Position numbers and translations under genes: made by a program. Below the pieces are notes generated by a model that had not been told where the DNA came from, did not search any database, and worked only from the letters and a program-made list of their open reading frames with translations. 32,000 bases of DNA from an uncultured bacterium (lineage in GTDB: Bacteria; Auribacterota; JACPWU01): positions 39,013 to 71,012 of the forward strand of contig CAZXEQ010000006.1 of the NCBI GenBank assembly GCA_964640155.1, given 5' to 3'. Positions 2,869-25,837 of the stretch are shown piece by piece. Each line of letters starts with the position of its first letter. The first letter of the stretch is position 1.

Positions 2869-4140
2869 ATGAGGAAGTTATTTTTAATGTTGGCAGTAGT
2901 TACAGCTCTTACCTGTACTGAGTCTCGCTCTGCTTGGTCTCAAGTAGATGAAGAAGCTCTGATGCAGAAGTTAGAGACGTTAGAAAATAAAGTTAAAGAG
3001 TTGGAAGCACAATTGGGTGGTGAAGCAGTCGTTAGTGCTGATGATAAAGCACCTATTGTCGGAGGCATTGAAATCAGCGGAGGTATTTCAACAAACTCTG
3101 TTTGGAATTTTGATTCTCCAGATAGTGGTTCTAATGGCTTAAGGGTATTTGATACAGACTCAAATTCAGCAGGAGTTGATATTGTTGAAGTTGCTCTTGC
3201 CAAGAATTCTGAATCAGGACTTGGAGGTCGTATTGACCTTAATTTCCTTAAAACAGCCGGAGTCATTGCTTCAGCAGGAACAGACAGTGATGATTTCGAT
3301 GTTCAACAGGCCTATATCACTTACACATCTCCACTGAGTTTCCCATGTGAAGGTTTATCAATTAAGCTTGGAAAATTCGTCACTCCTTTGGGCGCTGAAG
3401 TTATTGAGCCTTGGGATAACTGGAATTTTTCTCGTTCACTTCTTTTTGGATATGCAATTCCTTTTACGCATGTAGGTATTACAGTATCCAAAAGCTTTAC
3501 AGATTATCTCAGTCTTACCGCTGGTGTGGTAAACGGTTGGGATAATGTTTCCGATAACAATGATGGAAAAAGTTTTCTGGGTAATGTAACACTTGGACCA
3601 TGGGAATGGTTTACTTTGGGCATCAATGGTATCGTCGGTCCAGAGCAAGCAGATGAAAATGGTAATGTTCGCGGGGTTCTTGACCTTGTTTTAACAGCCA
3701 AGCCTACTCCGATCCCACAGTTAACCTTGATGTTTAACTATGATTACGGAACGGAAAGTGATGTTCCTTCATTTGAAGATCACACCACTATTACAACGAG
3801 TACCATCACAGGCTTCAGCGACATTTCTACAGAGACTGTGCAAGTGGGTGCATCTGATGCTACATGGCAAGGTTTTGCAGGATATGCCAAGTATGACTTC
3901 ACAGATCGTTTGTATGCAGCCATCCGTGGTGAATGGTTCAGTGATGAAGATGGTGCACGAACAGGAACTTCTCAAGATTTATGGGAAATTACTGTAACAG
4001 GAGCTTATATGTTTGTCGAAGGACTTTGGGGTCGTTTAGAATATCGTCATGATGATTCTAATGCTACACCTTTCCTCGATGGTGATTCAGCAACTGATAC
4101 ACAGAACACCATTTCTACAGAAGTACTTTATATATTCTAG
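2869..4140 (+). CDS. outer-membrane beta-barrel porin-like protein
   Basis: Strong SD (aaaGGAGGGGGtaATG). Signal peptide MRKLFLMLAVVTALT, N-terminal coiled-coil segment, alternating beta-strand-like pattern, and a C-terminal aromatic end (...EVLYIF) typical of OM barrels. Confidence 0.8.
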   Translation: MRKLFLMLAVVTALTCTESRSAWSQVDEEALMQKLETLENKVKELEAQLGGEAVVSADDKAPIVGGIEISGGISTNSVWNFDSPDSGSNGLRVFDTDSNSAGVDIVEVALAKNSESGLGGRIDLNFLKTAGVIASAGTDSDDFDVQQAYITYTSPLSFPCEGLSIKLGKFVTPLGAEVIEPWDNWNFSRSLLFGYAIPFTHVGITVSKSFTDYLSLTAGVVNGWDNVSDNNDGKSFLGNVTLGPWEWFTLGINGIVGPEQADENGNVRGVLDLVLTAKPTPIPQLTLMFNYDYGTESDVPSFEDHTTITTSTITGFSDISTETVQVGASDATWQGFAGYAKYDFTDRLYAAIRGEWFSDEDGARTGTSQDLWEITVTGAYMFVEGLWGRLEYRHDDSNATPFLDGDSATDTQNTISTEVLYIF

Positions 4141-4165
4141 TTTTTCTAGAATATTTTTTACAAAA

Positions 4166-18486: not shown

Positions 18487-18518
18487 TTTAATTCCCTTCT
18501 ATCGATTTCTAATTTTGA

Positions 18519-18667
18519 AACCTCTCAAAAAGGTCCCAGACATGTTTTTATAGTCCCCTTTAGGGGATGCAAGGCGCACGCAAGCGACTGCGGAGGCGTA
18601 CGTTTCCTGGTACGCCGCACAAAGAAGCGAAGCGGGCAACACAGCAGATGGGCCTTTTTCAGAGGTT
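18519..18667. repeat. GC-rich palindromic element R1, copy 2 (149 bp), inside the nuoA-nuoB intergenic region
   Basis: Same terminal inverted repeats as 961-1082. Colinear with copy 1 except for a 29-nt segment (18539-18567, replacing GG in copy 1) that carries the hairpin TCCCC-TTTA-GGGGA. It ends 4 nt from the nuoA stop codon. Confidence 0.85.
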
Positions 18668-18671
18668 TCAT

Positions 18672-19028
18672 TTATTCCCACTCTAAAGCCCCCTTATGCC
18701 AAGCATAAAAAAGCCCCACCACAACAATACCCAAAAAAGCCACCATTTCTAAAAATCCAATTATACCTAACCCTTTGAAAACAACCGCCCAGGGAAACAA
18801 AAAAACTAACTCAACATCAAAAATAACAAAGAGCATAGCCACCAAGTAAAACTTAACGCCAAATCGCCCTCGAGGCAAAGTCACAGGCTCATAACCACAT
18901 TCAAAAGGTTGTCCCTTCACCTTCGTCGGATTCTTCGGCCCTAGAAGCATACTGGCAGCCAAAAGACCAAAAGCAATCAATCCTGAAAAAGCAAAAACAA
19001 TCAGTAAACTTGCATATTCTATATTCAT
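18672..19028 (-). CDS. nuoA: NADH-quinone oxidoreductase subunit A
   Basis: 118 aa, three TM segments, motifs PFECGY and FDVE..FLFPW. Confidence 0.93.
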   Translation of the reverse strand: MNIEYASLLIVFAFSGLIAFGLLAASMLLGPKNPTKVKGQPFECGYEPVTLPRGRFGVKFYLVAMLFVIFDVELVFLFPWAVVFKGLGIIGFLEMVAFLGIVVVGLFYAWHKGALEWE

Positions 19029-21370: not shown

Positions 21371-21769
21371 TCAGCACGAATGCAAAGCAATACGATTCCC
21401 TTCGCTATCCAAAACAACGGCTCTAAAACCATAGGGGGCAATAGAATGTTTTTCTTGAAGAATTTTTCCACCATTTGCCTTAGCTGCTTTAATTGCATCA
21501 TCCAGTCTTCCATTTGTATTTAAATAAATTAAAACACCTTGTCCAGAAGGAACGTTTCCCTCAGTTTTTACTAAGCATGCACCTATTCCTTCCCCGGCAT
21601 GAGGAAGAACTCCTATGGCAAAATCAGGCATTTCTTCTTTTATTATTTTTGCTCCAATGACTGCAGAATAAAATCGAATGGCTCGATCTAAATCAACCAC
21701 TGGAATATCACACCAAACAATTTGATTAATAGAGCATTCTTTTTCGGATTTCAATTCAGTGTCTTTCAT
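21371..21769 (-). CDS. VOC (glyoxalase/bleomycin-resistance/dioxygenase) family protein
   Basis: 132 aa. The N-terminal W.DIPV.DLDRAIRFY motif and the overall pattern are typical of small VOC proteins. Confidence 0.8.
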   Translation of the reverse strand: MKDTELKSEKECSINQIVWCDIPVVDLDRAIRFYSAVIGAKIIKEEMPDFAIGVLPHAGEGIGACLVKTEGNVPSGQGVLIYLNTNGRLDDAIKAAKANGGKILQEKHSIAPYGFRAVVLDSEGNRIALHSC

Positions 21770-22294: not shown

Positions 22295-22308
22295 TGGAGG
22301 TGGCGGGA
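22295..22308 (-). repeat. copy 3 of the tmRNA T-loop-to-3'-end 14-mer (att-like)
   Basis: TGGAGGTGGCGGGA on the plus strand, identical to 23218-23231 and 22971-22984. Confidence 0.85.
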
Positions 22309-22405
22309 ATCGAATCGCTCGATCTAAATCAAGCACTGGAATATCACACCAAACAATTTGATTAATAGAGCATTCTTTTTCGGATTTCAATTCAGTGTCT
22401 TTCAT
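22308..22405 (-). pseudogene. duplicated 5' fragment (about 33 codons) of the VOC gene
   Basis: MKDTELKSEKECSINQIVWCDIPVLDLDRAIRF matches the N-terminus of 21371-21769 apart from one residue. The fragment then runs into the tmRNA-derived 14-mer. Confidence 0.85.
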
Positions 22406-22450
22406 AAAATTTCTCCTAATTTATTTTTTAAAATTGACGGCTAAGATCTA

Positions 22451-22903
22451 TTAGCTGATTTTAGATTTTAATTCGACGATAGCAATAATTTCTTCTTTTC
22501 CTAAGACATTCTCATAATGATATTCATCTTTATTACGTTCTAATTTCTTTTGAGTTGATAAATCAATTTTTAAGAGAACTAAATAGGAATGTCCTTCCAC
22601 CAAATACTTAGGAATATGCTTTTTAGCAAAAATTTCACTCTCAATTCCAATATAATTACGCTTTATTTTTCCTTTATAAATATTTTCAACCTTAAATCCC
22701 TTCAACAAAAACCATGCTCTGGTTCCATCAGGTCTAAAAACACAAGGGCTCCTTCCTTCAGTATAAATACCAGAAAAAATAACATTGGCTGACTTTACTA
22801 AATTCTTAGGAAGACTAGAGAATTCAGGAGGTAATTTATCTGAAGCTACAAGAGATTGGAAAATAAACATAAAAAAGATAAAAGCTGATAAAACATTTTT
22901 CAT
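22451..22903 (-). CDS. small secreted protein, paralog B
   Basis: 150 aa with signal peptide MKNVLSAFIFFMFIFQSLVA. The C-terminal 49 residues and the downstream DNA are identical to paralog A. Confidence 0.75.
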   Translation of the reverse strand: MKNVLSAFIFFMFIFQSLVASDKLPPEFSSLPKNLVKSANVIFSGIYTEGRSPCVFRPDGTRAWFLLKGFKVENIYKGKIKRNYIGIESEIFAKKHIPKYLVEGHSYLVLLKIDLSTQKKLERNKDEYHYENVLGKEEIIAIVELKSKIS

Positions 22904-22970
22904 AATTCTATTTTAGGATGCTCTTCATGACTTTTTAAACAGCAGTTCCTTCACATAAAAATAAAAGAAT

Positions 22971-22984
22971 TGGAGGTGGCGGGA
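22971..22984 (-). repeat. copy 2 of the tmRNA T-loop-to-3'-end 14-mer (att-like)
   Basis: TGGAGGTGGCGGGA on the plus strand. Together with the genuine tmRNA 3' end, it bounds element X. Confidence 0.85.
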
Positions 22985-23217
22985 TCGGCGCCTACGTTTC
23001 AGGCTAGCCGCTCTGCGGCATGGCCTCTTCGAGGCCTACGCATCCACTTCGGTCGGCCATTCGATGTTCGCAGCGGTCGTCCATCTACCACCGGTAGATG
23101 GTCATTATATATTCTGACTTCGTCAGATAACTCACGTCTCCCTTCGACTCCTGCACATTTGCAAAGGCCTATATTGTGCTGAAGTTTCTGGACCCTAGAT
23201 TTATCTTGGAATAACAA
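22985..23217 (-). mobile_element. element X: 233-nt GC-rich, hairpin-dense insert immediately 3' of tmRNA (miniature integrative-element remnant or unknown structured RNA)
   Basis: Flanked by 14-nt direct repeats. Hairpins at 23022-23036 (GGCCTC-TTC-GAGGCC), 23081-23101 (CCATCTACC-ACC-GGTAGATGG) and 23114-23126 (CTGAC-TTC-GTCAG). Its composition contrasts with the AT-rich flanks. Confidence 0.45.
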
Positions 23218-23618
23218 TGGAGGTGGCGGGAGTCGAACCCGCGTCCTAGAGTATTTCTTACGAGAGCCTCTACATGCTTAGGCTATTTTTTGGATCTCAT
23301 CCTTTTAGACTCCAACAGTCAGGATTCTAAAAGGACCAGTCGGCATGCGGTCTCCTCGCCATGAATGCGCCCACTCCATTCATGACCAGCCTGTTATGAG
23401 TCGCCTATTCAAGCCTCACAGACATAAGCCTGATAGACGTGGCTGACTAAGCAGCCAATGCCAACGTTCGAGGAGCGAACGAACCAATGTTCAACTTCTC
23501 AAACGGGATTACTTTCCCTGTATTGGCAAATAAATGTGCCAGGTGTTTTGAGAGGCCTCCTAGCAACCTCTGCATGCCACCCTCGTGTCCACACCCCAGT
23601 CGAATCCATTTCACCCCC
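23218..23618 (-). ncRNA. ssrA: tmRNA (SsrA), one-piece, about 401 nt, CCA not encoded
   Basis: The minus strand starts GGGGGTGAAATGGATTCGACTGGGG and ends GGACGCGGGTTCGACTCCCGCCACCTCCA (T-arm plus acceptor). The 5' GGGGGUG pairs with CACCUCC. Tag frame 23527-23447: GCC AAU ... GCA UUG GCU GCU UAG. smpB lies 0.9 kb upstream. Confidence 0.93.
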
Positions 23619-23701: not shown

Positions 23702-24271
23702 TTAAGCTTTTGAAAGCAACCGATTAAAACTTTGAAGAAGTTTATCCCCTCCCACTTCATCAAGTTTTTTTAACCATTCTTGGATATAGGTAACGTCGAT
23801 TTTCTTTTTCTGACGCTGAATAATTCCTTTTAAATCCTCATAATCTTTTGCTCTGGTACTTGCAATCTTGTGAATAATTAAATCTTCAGGACTTATTAAT
23901 TTTATCTTTAAATTATCTATTTTCTTTATTCGACCTCTACGAATTGCAGAAAATTCAAGAGAGTTTTCTGCAATAATAACATCCAGCTTCCCCAAAATAT
24001 TTCCTTTTTGAAACTTCAGGGGAATAACACCCGTTTTTTTTACAATCTTCATCGTTTCTTTAAAAGAAGGAGAAAAACCAAATTTTTTAATCTTCTTTAA
24101 AAAATCTTCTGCCTTTGCTTTATCCAAAACGACGTTAATATCAACGTCTAAAGTCATGCGAGGCTCTCCATAAATTGAAACAGCTATTCCGCCTATAATC
24201 ACATAAGGAATTTTTTCAGAAGAGAGAAATCGAGTAAGAGATTGAATCAAAGATTCAAATTGAAGACTCAT
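23702..24271 (-). CDS. minimal nucleotidyltransferase-fold protein (toxin-antitoxin-like cassette component)
   Basis: 189 aa. NTase signature IIGGIAVSIYGEPRMTLDVDINV (hGG...DxD). ATGA overlap with the upstream 72-aa ORF. Confidence 0.7.
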   Translation of the reverse strand: MSLQFESLIQSLTRFLSSEKIPYVIIGGIAVSIYGEPRMTLDVDINVVLDKAKAEDFLKKIKKFGFSPSFKETMKIVKKTGVIPLKFQKGNILGKLDVIIAENSLEFSAIRRGRIKKIDNLKIKLISPEDLIIHKIASTRAKDYEDLKGIIQRQKKKIDVTYIQEWLKKLDEVGGDKLLQSFNRLLSKA

Positions 24272-24486
24272 TTTATCCTTCCAAATAAAGTGTGAATTTT
24301 AGCCAAATGCTTAATCTTGGCTTCATCAAACTTTCTATTTTTAAAAACCCAGCCTGCACGACTTGCAAAATTATAAAGTTCCTTAAATGCTTTAAAACCA
24401 TCCTTCACAGATAAATTCTTTAAAAACTTGCGTTTCTGTTCATCTTCAAATTGATGATAAATTTCCCATTTTTTCTCTCTTAGCAT
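24268..24486 (-). CDS. small basic protein, partner of the nucleotidyltransferase
   Basis: 72 aa. Starts 1 nt after the smpB stop codon and overlaps the NTase start (ATGA). No motif recognised. Confidence 0.6.
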   Translation of the reverse strand: MLREKKWEIYHQFEDEQKRKFLKNLSVKDGFKAFKELYNFASRAGWVFKNRKFDEAKIKHLAKIHTLFGRIK

Positions 24487-24487
24487 A

Positions 24488-24961
24488 TCAATTTCCCTTA
24501 AACTTTCGTCTCATGGCTGCTTGAGCTTCTCTATCCGCAATACGTTTTTTAAGATCTTCTCTTTTATCTATTTTTTGTTTTCCCTGAGCAAGGGCTATAG
24601 CTACTTTGATCTTCCCATTTTTTAGATAAACCGCTAGGGGAACAAGCGTAAAACCTTTTTGAGAAATCTGTCCAATCAATTTTTTAATTTCATTGAAATG
24701 CAAAAGAAGCTTTCTCTTTCTCAAAGGCTCATGATTGGCTATATTTCCAAATTCATACGGATCCACATGAAAATTATAAAGAAAGATCTCTCCATTCTCG
24801 ACTCGACCAAAGCTATCATTTAAATTGGCTTTATGAGCTCGAATGGATTTTACTTCTGTTCCTTGAAGGACAATCCCCGCTTCAAAAGTTTCCAAAATAG
24901 TATAATCATGTCGGGCCTTACGATTGTTCATTAAAACATTTGAATCTTTTTCAGAACTCAT
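24488..24961 (-). CDS. smpB: SsrA-binding protein
   Basis: 157 aa with the motifs NRKARHDY, GTEVKS and the C-terminal basic tail typical of SmpB. Confidence 0.95.
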   Translation of the reverse strand: MSSEKDSNVLMNNRKARHDYTILETFEAGIVLQGTEVKSIRAHKANLNDSFGRVENGEIFLYNFHVDPYEFGNIANHEPLRKRKLLLHFNEIKKLIGQISQKGFTLVPLAVYLKNGKIKVAIALAQGKQKIDKREDLKKRIADREAQAAMRRKFKGN

Positions 24962-25347: not shown

Positions 25348-25489
25348 AAGCATTTTTTAGTATTTTCAATTAATAAATTCCCCTTTCCCCTTCGCTCTAT
25401 TACGGATAAACTGTAGCAGTAATTTTAAGGGCGCCCCGACGCAAGGTCGGGACGCTCCATTTTCTAACTTCACTTCGTTCAGAGAAAAT

Positions 25490-25571
25490 GGGCGGGTGGT
25501 GGAATCGGCAGACACGTAGGTCTCAGAAGCCTATGGGTAAAACCGTGGGGGTTCAAATCCCCCCTCGCCCA
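25490..25571 (+). tRNA. tRNA-Leu (anticodon CAG), type II, CCA not encoded
   Basis: Acceptor stem GGGCGGG/CTCGCCC (one G-U pair). D-arm GTG-GAATCGGCAGA-CAC. Anticodon arm TAGGT-CTCAGAA-GCCTA. Long variable arm. T-arm GGGGG-TTCAAAT-CCCCC. Discriminator A. Confidence 0.92.
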
Positions 25572-25819
25572 AAAACTGAATTGCAAAATTTTGAGTCAAA
25601 GAAGGTTTTTGCAGAGTAACGCATTCGTAATTTTTTAAAAGGGGGGTTTGAAGGGAGGGCCGACTCAAAATATTGTCAAATCATGCACAGCATGATTTGC
25701 GACTTCTCTAAGGCCCGGGTGGCCGAAGCCGACGTAAAGTCGGCTCCCCGATAATGCATCGGGGCCGGAGGCGTCCAAAGGTTTCCGACATTTGTCGGAA
25801 TAGCCGAATGCGAAGGCGC
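25572..25819 (+). mobile_element. element Y: 248-nt insert immediately 3' of tRNA-Leu, with an AT-rich 5' part and a GC-rich hairpin-dense 3' part
   Basis: Bounded by the tRNA 3' end and the repeat at 25820-25837. Hairpins at 25679-25697, 25728-25744 (GCCGAC-GTAAA-GTCGGC), 25746-25764 (CCCCGAT-AATGC-ATCGGGG) and 25783-25800 (TTCCGAC-ATTT-GTCGGAA). Confidence 0.45.
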
Positions 25820-25837
25820 CAAATCCCCCCTCACCCA
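25820..25837 (+). repeat. second copy of the tRNA-Leu T-loop-to-3'-end 18-mer (att-like)
   Basis: CAAATCCCCCCTCACCCA against CAAATCCCCCCTCGCCCA at 25554-25571 (17 of 18 identical). Confidence 0.85.

Follow-up and report, generated by a model that had tools for sequence, protein, structure and literature searches.

Probable miniature gene-less integrative elements at the T-loops of a tmRNA gene and a tRNA-Leu gene in an uncultured bacterium

In a stretch of 32,000 nucleotides from an uncultured bacterium (contig CAZXEQ010000006.1; the whole stretch is called the window here), the gene for tRNA-Leu(CAG) and the gene for transfer-messenger RNA (tmRNA) are each followed by a small module that ends in a further copy of the RNA gene's own 3' end. 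How did two different RNA genes acquire such modules at the same place? The module behind the tRNA gene, Y (25572-25837, 266 nt), begins directly after the discriminator base, an A at 25571, of a plus-strand gene that Rfam places at 25490-25571 and ARAGORN at 25489-25572. It ends in CAAATCCCCCCTCACCCA (25820-25837), which matches the tRNA segment CAAATCCCCCCTCGCCCA (25554-25571), starting at the third T-loop base, in 17 of 18 positions, and both gene calls and sequence thereby bear out what the original prediction had said of this end. The module X (23217-22971, minus strand, 247 nt) follows the tmRNA gene (23218-23618, minus strand, with ARAGORN and Rfam in agreement) and ends in CGATCCCGCCACCTCCA (22987-22971), a distal counterpart of tmRNA's CGACTCCCGCCACCTCCA with a 1-nt deletion. 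Neither X nor Y has coding capacity.

We consider it probable that X and Y represent a family of miniature integrative elements without genes, about 190 to 270 bp long, which occupy the T-loop sublocation of tDNAs (genes for tRNA or tmRNA) in a clade of uncultured Chlamydiota and are moved in trans. Four observations carry this reading: related loci with and without the insertion, the replacement of the host gene's 3' end, the family relation among the elements, and a short inverted segment, here called the inverse core, whose sequence matches the target.

X and Y share one order of parts, namely an AT-rich arm, the inverse core, the box GAAGGGAG, a run of palindromes, a hairpin, the motif TAGCC N8 AGGCGCC, and the copy of the gene end (the core). 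In each, the distance from one hairpin to the right end is exactly 20 nt. For comparison, orthologous loci in relatives were fetched via SmpB homologues; they are referred to by L numbers. The parts of both elements are as follows.

25490-25571, plus strand: intact tRNA-Leu(CAG) gene, whose last 18 nt (25554-25571, CAAATCCCCCCTCGCCCA) are the proximal core, the identity block on the attL (left attachment site) side
25572-25640, plus strand: AT-rich arm of Y, 69 nt, with two TTGCRRA motifs, ATTGCAAA and TTTGCAGA
25641-25650, plus strand: inverse core of Y, GGGGGGTTTG, reverse complement of the core start CAAA(T)CCCCCC
25650-25657, plus strand: GAAGGGAG box of Y, a conserved left-end motif common to X and the L129 element; L041 has TGAGGGGAG there
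25658-25800, plus strand: G+C-rich cluster of perfect palindromes of Y (25675-25703, 25728-25744, 25746-25764 and 25783-25800)
25801-25820, plus strand: right-end box of Y, TAGCCGAATGCGAAGGCGCC, 15/20 identical to that of X
25820-25837, plus strand: distal core copy of Y, CAAATCCCCCCTCACCCA (17/18), after which comes the natural tRNA flank
23218-23618, minus strand: intact tmRNA gene, with its proximal core CGACTCCCGCCACCTCCA at 23235-23218
23155-23217, minus strand: AT-rich arm of X, homologous to the AT arm of the L129 element
23154-23145, minus strand: inverse core of X, GCAGGAGTCG, overlapping the GAAGGGAG box at 23145-23138
23007-23137, minus strand: G+C-rich palindrome cluster of X (23127-23113, 23101-23081, 23036-23022 and 23019-23007)
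22987-23006, minus strand: right-end box of X, TAGCCTGAAACGTAGGCGCC
22971-22987, minus strand: distal core copy 2, CGATCCCGCCACCTCCA, where X ends

The two elements are related chiefly at their ends. The last 20 nt before the repeat agree in 15 positions (chance about 5e-6), GAAGGGAG stands at an equal offset in both after the complementary run (chance about 1.5e-5), and TGGCCGA occurs in mid-element at 25720-25726 in Y and 23059-23053 in X, all as originally predicted. A formal alignment gave a more divided answer: the local score was no better than that of shuffled sequences and the global one was weak (z = 2.5 to 3.4), whereas the anchored end motifs lie far beyond chance. Because unanchored similarity is weak, the homology of X and Y rests on these end motifs and on family members in other genomes; on that footing the two are one family of small modules at the same sub-site, from T-loop to 3' end, of two RNA genes. 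The proposed likeness of the AT-rich part of Y to the tRNA anticodon arm dissolved, being at chance level (93% of shuffles score at least equally).

The run at matching positions in the two elements, GGGGGG at 25641-25646 in Y and GCAGGA within 23154-23145 in X, had been taken for a complement of the repeated T-stem strand. The run is there, but it is better described as belonging to a reverse-complement copy of the 10 nt with which the element's own core begins, T-loop bases included (GGGGGGTTTG against CAAATCCCCCC in Y; GCAGGAGTCG against CGACTCCCGC in X). In five elements this inverse core matches its core start in 9.5/11, 9/10, 8/10, 8/9 and 10/10 positions, and it changes with the target: GGAGTCG where the tmRNA has CGACTCC, GAATGG for CGATTCC, GGGGGGTTTG for CAAATCC of tRNA-Leu, and GGGGGACTTG for CAAGTCC. 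Because its sequence tracks the target in this way, the inverse core is a working component of the element, not a T-stem in decay. It could serve as an extra recombinase half-site, or as one strand of a folded site like the attC of integrons.

Among the relatives, some sites are empty and others filled. In L036, GAAAATTAGGGTATAGGG adjoins the end of the tRNA-Leu gene and corresponds to the flank found after Y in the window, TTAAACTAGGGCATAGTGCATAGGG; L037 likewise has no Y, and the tmRNA genes of L036, L037, L040 to L042 and L126/127 are without X. L129/L130, in turn, are filled with a homologue of X, alignable to the window's X over its whole length and comprising the AT arm, an inverse core (GCGTGAATGG), GAAGGGAG, GGCCGACCGAA and TAACCTGAAACGTAGGAGCC; here the pairing of the hairpin 23036-23022 is kept through a double change, from GGCCTC/GAGGCC to GGTCTC/GAGACC. 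In L043/L044 the tmRNA gene is followed by a 64-nt AT arm, GGGAGTCGAAG, about 112 nt of palindromes and a 17/17 copy of the gene end. This shorter, X-like element has GGAGTCGAAG in common, keeps only GAAG of the GAAGGGAG box and has a different right end. Altogether, the elements measure 266, 247, 214 and 192 nt, and all are non-coding. For Y, the attachment sites can be reconstructed: the attP junction of the element would read GAAGGCGC, then CAAATCCCCCCTCGCCCA, then AAAACTGAATTG, and the empty attB would be the tRNA gene joined to TTAAACTAGGGCATAG.

Which of the two gene ends belonged to the host? In both L129 and L043 the working tmRNA gene ends in CCTCCA, with no encoded CCA, and the distal copy ends in CACCA; the L129 distal copy has two further mismatches. 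The empty counterpart of L129 is L039, which shares its 90% SmpB cluster and has an identical tmRNA tag; the pair is at or near species level. Its tmRNA gene does encode CCA, ending in CCTCCACCA followed by ATTGAAAAGCC, and its flank and terminator are orthologous to those after the distal copy of L129. Because CCA is found only in the distal copy of the filled sites and is encoded in the empty one, the incoming element supplied the 3' end that now completes the gene, with the host's original end displaced and decaying. Integration of the integrase type at the T-loop sublocation has a displaced host 3' end as its signature; regenerated tDNAs with displaced fragments are the marker of integrase-borne islands, the T-stem region is the commonest position of attP, and tyrosine recombinases are the only ones known to target tDNAs (PMC4383910). 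Also unsupported is the suggestion that Y is a tRNA 3' half, duplicated and degenerate, whose T-loop took up an insertion: what stands downstream is the displaced host end (CCA is kept in the L129 and L043 copies and absent from the rebuilt gene), the AT part is unlike tRNA, and the complementary run is an inverted core, not the 5' strand of the T-stem. In Y, the G-to-A change in the distal copy would disrupt acceptor pair 4-69.

Empty and filled sites in relatives, polymorphism between near-conspecifics and homologues in three lineages show that the family is mobile or was so recently, which supports the miniature-element side of the original prediction. Alternatively, X and Y might be inert scars of a large tDNA-integrated island or prophage that lost its interior by deletion, never having moved as units of 250 bp. 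Scars would be consistent with the lack of a recombinase in or near the elements, with the decay of the distal copies, and with the scrambled, truncated remnants at the tRNA-Leu site in L041, L040 and L039. We nevertheless regard this explanation as unlikely, since independent deletions would not repeat one compact architecture in X, Y, L129 and L043, namely an AT arm of 62 to 69 nt, an inverse core with GAAG (the full GAAGGGAG in X, Y and L129) and palindromes, joined in X, Y and L129 by the right-end box. Moreover, X is patchy, being present in lineages whose SmpB proteins are 66 to 74% identical and absent in intermediate lineages and in one near-conspecific, which requires either transfer or precise excision of a small unit, and conservation in the 3' part of X exceeds that at third-codon positions of smpB (74% against 49% in one alignment). 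To judge from this recurrence, patchiness and conservation, the small unit itself must be the mobile entity, now or recently.

According to the reading that we favor, integrative elements moved in trans, conservative site-specific recombination would insert an element into the T-loop sublocation of the tmRNA or tRNA-Leu(CAG) gene. Each element would bring its own copy of the target's T-loop-to-3' end, which would complete the gene upon integration, while the original host 3' end would be moved to the far side and freed from selection. The remainder would be cis-acting DNA: the AT arm beside the rebuilt gene, the inverse core with the GAAGGGAG box, the palindromes, and the right-end box TAGCC N8 AGGCGCC, which would adjoin the crossover. 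The arms may be protein-binding sites. Because the elements encode no recombinase, their movement would depend on an enzyme in trans, most likely a tyrosine integrase that a larger island or phage of the same community encodes, and the element would act like a satellite or a cis-mobilizable element (CIME). Under this scheme the window copies may still be mobile at present.

Recombination at the T-loop also seems to have left its mark farther downstream of the tmRNA gene, where the window holds a third copy of the gene end in tandem with the other two. The features concerned are these.

22295-22314, minus strand: third copy of the tmRNA T-loop-to-3' end, TTCGATTCCCGCCACCTCCA
22315-22970, minus strand: second unit of the tmRNA array, 656 nt, made up of natural flank, an open reading frame (ORF) of 150 aa (22451-22903) and the first ~96 nt of a glyoxalase gene
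21666-21684, minus strand: pseudo-site GAGCCATTCGATTTTATTC in the intact glyoxalase gene, with the duplication junction at TTCGATT

The second unit duplicates, in tandem, the segment between 22294 and about 21680, with a period of 636 nt and 99% identity over 300 nt, and its 150-aa ORF looks secreted. The two units diverge exactly at TTCGATT, where one runs into CCCGCCACCTCCA and the other into the glyoxalase reading frame. Such a 7-bp match between the tmRNA T-loop and the glyoxalase pseudo-site would be expected from unequal exchange by a site-specific recombinase, although the unit may alternatively have arisen by microhomology-mediated duplication. Because three tmRNA-end copies stand in tandem and the duplication junction lies at this 7-bp match, we conclude that T-loop recombination is active in this lineage.

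Several points weigh against integrative elements moved in trans. First, no cognate integrase and no autonomous relative, such as the original prediction had envisaged, turned up in scans of contigs, metagenomes and viruses, which gave chance or unrelated matches. In the window itself, no integrase or transposase was matched by Pfam among the ORFs scanned (most of those of at least 100 aa). Second, the geometry is unusual: G+C-rich perfect palindromes are atypical of attP arms, the inverse core lies 110 to 170 bp from the crossover, unlike a textbook C-O-C' core, and a circle of 190 to 270 bp is a stiff substrate for the synapse of a tyrosine recombinase. Third, the TTGCRRA motif of the AT arms, seen 6 times against about 0.1 expected, was defined post hoc and is lacking in L129. 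Fourth, the downstream copies in L041 have a "foreign" type of acceptor stem (CTCGCCC, where the host has CGTCCCC), which a simple model can accommodate only through a multi-step history of tandem accretion and subsequent deletion. Finally, the hairpin pair of Y at 25728-25764 (GCCGAC..GTCGGC and CCCCGA..TCGGGG) has a homologue in L126 (374-410, minus strand) away from any tRNA gene; because of this recurrence, the interior of Y may consist in part of hitch-hiking hairpins like repetitive extragenic palindromes (REPs). The L126 pair lies about 80 nt outside an insertion sequence (IS) with an rve transposase, on a contig that has no ferredoxin gene and tRNA-Leu upstream of smpB.

The individual scans were as follows. 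The pattern GAAGGGAG N{120,150} TAGCC N8 AGGCGCC was matched 34 times in genome contigs, which is about a rough chance estimate, and none of the matches lay beside a tRNA gene; multi-copy matches of the end-box pattern in Sphingobium were rejected as an unrelated repeat. An SmpB-seeded metagenome scan returned only loci of at most 64% identity, whose tmRNA tags were unlike those of the chlamydial clade. Among 61 tDNAs examined, no downstream copy was found outside this clade, except for one match with 2 mismatches at 343 nt in L058. Viral contigs gave either no match to the element patterns or only chance matches in coding sequence, and blastn found no match for X and Y in a plasmid collection or for Y in a phage collection.

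The tRNA-Leu site of the relatives has a complex record of its own. In L041 a Y-type remnant consists of GTAGGCGCC and a core copy; farther on comes AAAAAGGGGGACTTGAGGGGAG, an inverse core exactly complementary to CAAGTCCCCC, and then AGGGGAG. In L039 the remnant is CTTAGGCGTC with a copy, and AGGCG[CT]C precedes the core copy in both. Direct and inverted copies are both present in L040, where the inverted copy of the tRNA-Leu 3' end, AACCCCCCTCGCCCA (3993-4015), runs straight into GCAAGGGAGG, the left-end box of the family; such an arrangement suggests an inversion or a differently arranged family member. A separate palindromic repeat with a perfect 21-bp inverted repeat, AGGCCTATGCACTTGACTCAA and its complement, occurs at 4096-4151 and 10373-10428 in L040 and at 10349-10404 in L041, with one copy in the hotspot downstream of tRNA-Leu and another about 6 kb away. 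Between the scrambled tRNA-Leu array and a short-chain dehydrogenase/reductase (SDR) gene, L041 has an MNT/HEPN pair (Polbeta nucleotidyltransferase and HEPN; 3319-4051); L040, with identical SmpB and tRNA, has other content there, which makes the site variable between strains. In L128 tRNA-Leu(CAG) (1257-1338) is inverted relative to smpB and the ferredoxin gene, unlike in all other loci of the clade.

Could the folding of the elements, rather than duplex arms, be what a recombinase recognizes? Inverse core, palindromes and core might fold as a single-stranded attC-like site, which a tyrosine recombinase would pair with the T-arm of a tDNA, so that cassette-like units accumulate behind it. 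Much of the anatomy is in keeping with this: the palindrome cluster forms a single folded domain that the target-matched inverse core closes, conservation is found in the stems and variation in the loops and interior, neither strand folds better than the other, the identity block begins at the edge of the closing helix, and units stand in tandem behind the tmRNA gene. Nevertheless, neither an IntI-like gene nor GTTRRRY/RYYYAAC boxes were seen, the closing helix provides one half-site only, the second array unit (22970-22315) is without such a folded site, and the whole proposal is deduced from sequence. We therefore judge it improbable. With the same slim chance, the elements would be T-loop-targeting analogues of integron cassettes, which take their specificity from a target-matched inverted repeat that can be rewritten for a new tDNA, tmRNA or tRNA-Leu.

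A different possibility, raised in the original prediction as a conserved tRNA-linked structured RNA, is that X and Y are RNA genes, or 3' extensions co-transcribed with the tRNA and tmRNA, whose tRNA-like 3' end serves processing or function. The predicted folds are more stable than those of shuffled sequences (z = -4.3 and -3.9), highly expressed RNA genes stand immediately upstream of the modules, and one hairpin shows a compensatory change between the window's X and that of L129. However, no Rfam family other than tRNA and tmRNA matched even at a permissive threshold, and loci without any element likewise give the weak tmRNA_permuted matches (20 to 24 bits, where the gathering score is 47). 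The two strands, sense and antisense, are equal in fold energy (-86.6/-86.2, -69.8/-70.9 and -62.3/-59.8 kcal/mol), the hairpins, all perfect Watson-Crick palindromes, are not the same in sequence or position in X and Y, and close relatives with the same tDNA lack the module. A scan of both AT arms found no promoter-like site, and the tRNA-like 3' end is accounted for as displaced host DNA. All in all, an RNA function for the modules is very unlikely.

Least plausible is an origin of the G+C-rich part as a palindrome-associated transposable element (PATE) of the IS200/IS605 type or as the scaffold of an omega-RNA or other guide RNA, with the 3' 17-18 nt as a guide against the tDNA beside GGTT/TTCRA: despite the subterminal hairpins (one of them exactly 20 nt from the right end in X and Y), a layout like that of a scaffold with 3' guide, and TTCAA/TTCGA in the T-loop, Pfam detected no TnpA, TnpB or Cas gene among the window ORFs scanned and Rfam no match, IS200/IS605 insertion leaves no direct repeat and would not rebuild a gene as the 17-20-nt repeats do here, the supposed guide is decayed host DNA in L129 (two mismatches and CCA) and has a 1-nt deletion in X, and a guide identical to an essential host gene would target the host itself, which leaves this reading largely refuted and hardly credible. 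A guide RNA of a CRISPR-associated transposon (CAST) or of TnpB falls on the same grounds.

A few narrower ideas were also rejected. Neither scan nor inspection of the AT arm revealed a consistent -35/-10 promoter pair, and similarity of the arm to a decayed tRNA 5' half is at chance. A small peptide with GAAGGGAG as its Shine-Dalgarno sequence would need a start codon or ORF conserved across X, Y and L129, and none was found by inspection. The distal copy does not resemble a tRNA primer-binding site, as it is in sense orientation and has no TGG for CCA. A group I intron in the tmRNA T-loop was rejected as well, since the gene is intact and Rfam showed no intron signature.

As for the surroundings, the window is core genome of 37% G+C (nuo operon, Mur ligase, porin and similar genes), and the closest named relatives of its SmpB are metagenome-assembled genomes of Chlamydiae/Chlamydiota. 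The smpB gene (24488-24961, minus strand) lies between the tRNA-Leu(CAG) and tmRNA genes. Between smpB and the tmRNA gene, at 23702-24486 (minus strand), there is a two-gene module of a 72-aa ORF and a DUF2204/DUF6036 nucleotidyltransferase with a weak AbiEii match; it resembles a toxin-antitoxin pair, is present in the window and in L040 to L042 but absent in L036, L037 and L039, and is probably another small insertion. The tag region of the tmRNA gene (window 23447-23527) encodes an unusually long tag of 26 aa, ANTGKVIPFEKLNIGSFAPRTLALAA, whose length and motif are conserved throughout the clade, and the 3' CCA of the tmRNA gene is encoded in some lineages and absent from the gene in others. 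The window also contains two copies (957-1085 and 18518-18672; 83% identity over 110 nt) of a G+C-rich palindromic element that resembles a miniature inverted-repeat transposable element (MITE), with terminal inverted repeats of about 22 nt, AAACCTCTCAAAAAGGTCCCAG and its complement, and an internal hairpin with compensatory changes between the copies. Kinship of X and Y with it was rejected, as alignments were no better than shuffles.

If elements of 200 to 270 bp do propagate, each would be essentially a natural minimal attP, and no smaller unit still able to enter a tDNA and restore it is known to us. They would then define all the cis sequence needed for integration at chlamydial tmRNA and tRNA-Leu genes; chlamydiae are a group with few genetic tools, and identification of the cognate integrase could open these sites to integration vectors. 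The target-matched inverse core, in addition, hints at how elements retarget between tDNAs. Even if they are only scars, the elements mark a very active hotspot of T-loop recombination, which has also yielded a gene duplication through a pseudo-site within a protein-coding gene.

How, then, do X and Y compare with known systems? They share most with islands and prophages that integrate into tDNAs (the Islander class, in Williams's scheme of "sublocations"): an intact tDNA and a cognate displaced 3' fragment in direct orientation, an identity block from T-loop to 3' end, tandem arrays at the tmRNA gene, empty sites in relatives and, in L129 and L043 with the empty site of L039, restoration of the gene by element-borne sequence with displacement of the host end. 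In contrast to this class, whose members span 2 to 200 kb and have an internal tyrosine integrase, the X/Y family has only 190 to 270 bp and no genes, and it has in addition the target-matched inverse core and the palindrome cluster. The Islander tool rejects candidates below 2 kb or without an integrase (PMC4383910). Elements of the X/Y type are therefore filtered out by it, and their propagation would expose a class that standard island finders discard.

The CIMEs whose examples have been described are kb-sized. Like these, X and Y are flanked by att sites, have no recombination or transfer genes, stand in tandem with other units at one att site and would depend on an external recombinase for their mobilization. 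By definition, a CIME is a decayed integrative and conjugative element (ICE) or integrative and mobilizable element (IME) that retains attL and attR but has lost its integrase (PMC5704250). In X and Y, however, a compact architecture recurs at two tDNAs and in several lineages, which suggests a propagating miniature form and not a one-off decay.

Other small or modular systems are more distant. With integron attC sites and cassettes the family has in common the pairing of inverse core and core across a variable center, a crossover at the core edge and tandem units, yet the window has no IntI, attI or GTTRRRY consensus, the repeated block of 17 to 20 nt is part of an RNA gene, and the likeness is structural only. 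MITEs, REPs and their mosaic assemblies (bacterial interspersed mosaic elements, BIMEs) and IS200/IS605 PATEs are likewise small, non-coding and rich in hairpins, with short terminal inverted repeats. Unlike them, X and Y rebuild a gene, leave a 17-20-nt copy of the gene end instead of a short target-site duplication or none, and aim at one tDNA sub-site. Set against the criteria for DDE-type MITEs, they have a 10-nt inverted pair (inverse core and core) and two copies within the 32-kb window, and no multicopy dispersal is seen there. A chlamydial precedent is the tRNA-linked island Pam100G of the environmental chlamydia Protochlamydia amoebophila, which has 100 kb, 17-bp direct repeats and a tra operon and is linked to tRNA-Gly (PMC548262); it is, like X and Y, linked to a tDNA and bounded by direct repeats, a likeness by description and not by sequence relation. 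Taken together, the mechanism of the X/Y family, judged by analogy, most resembles that of tDNA-integrating islands and, more narrowly, of CIMEs.

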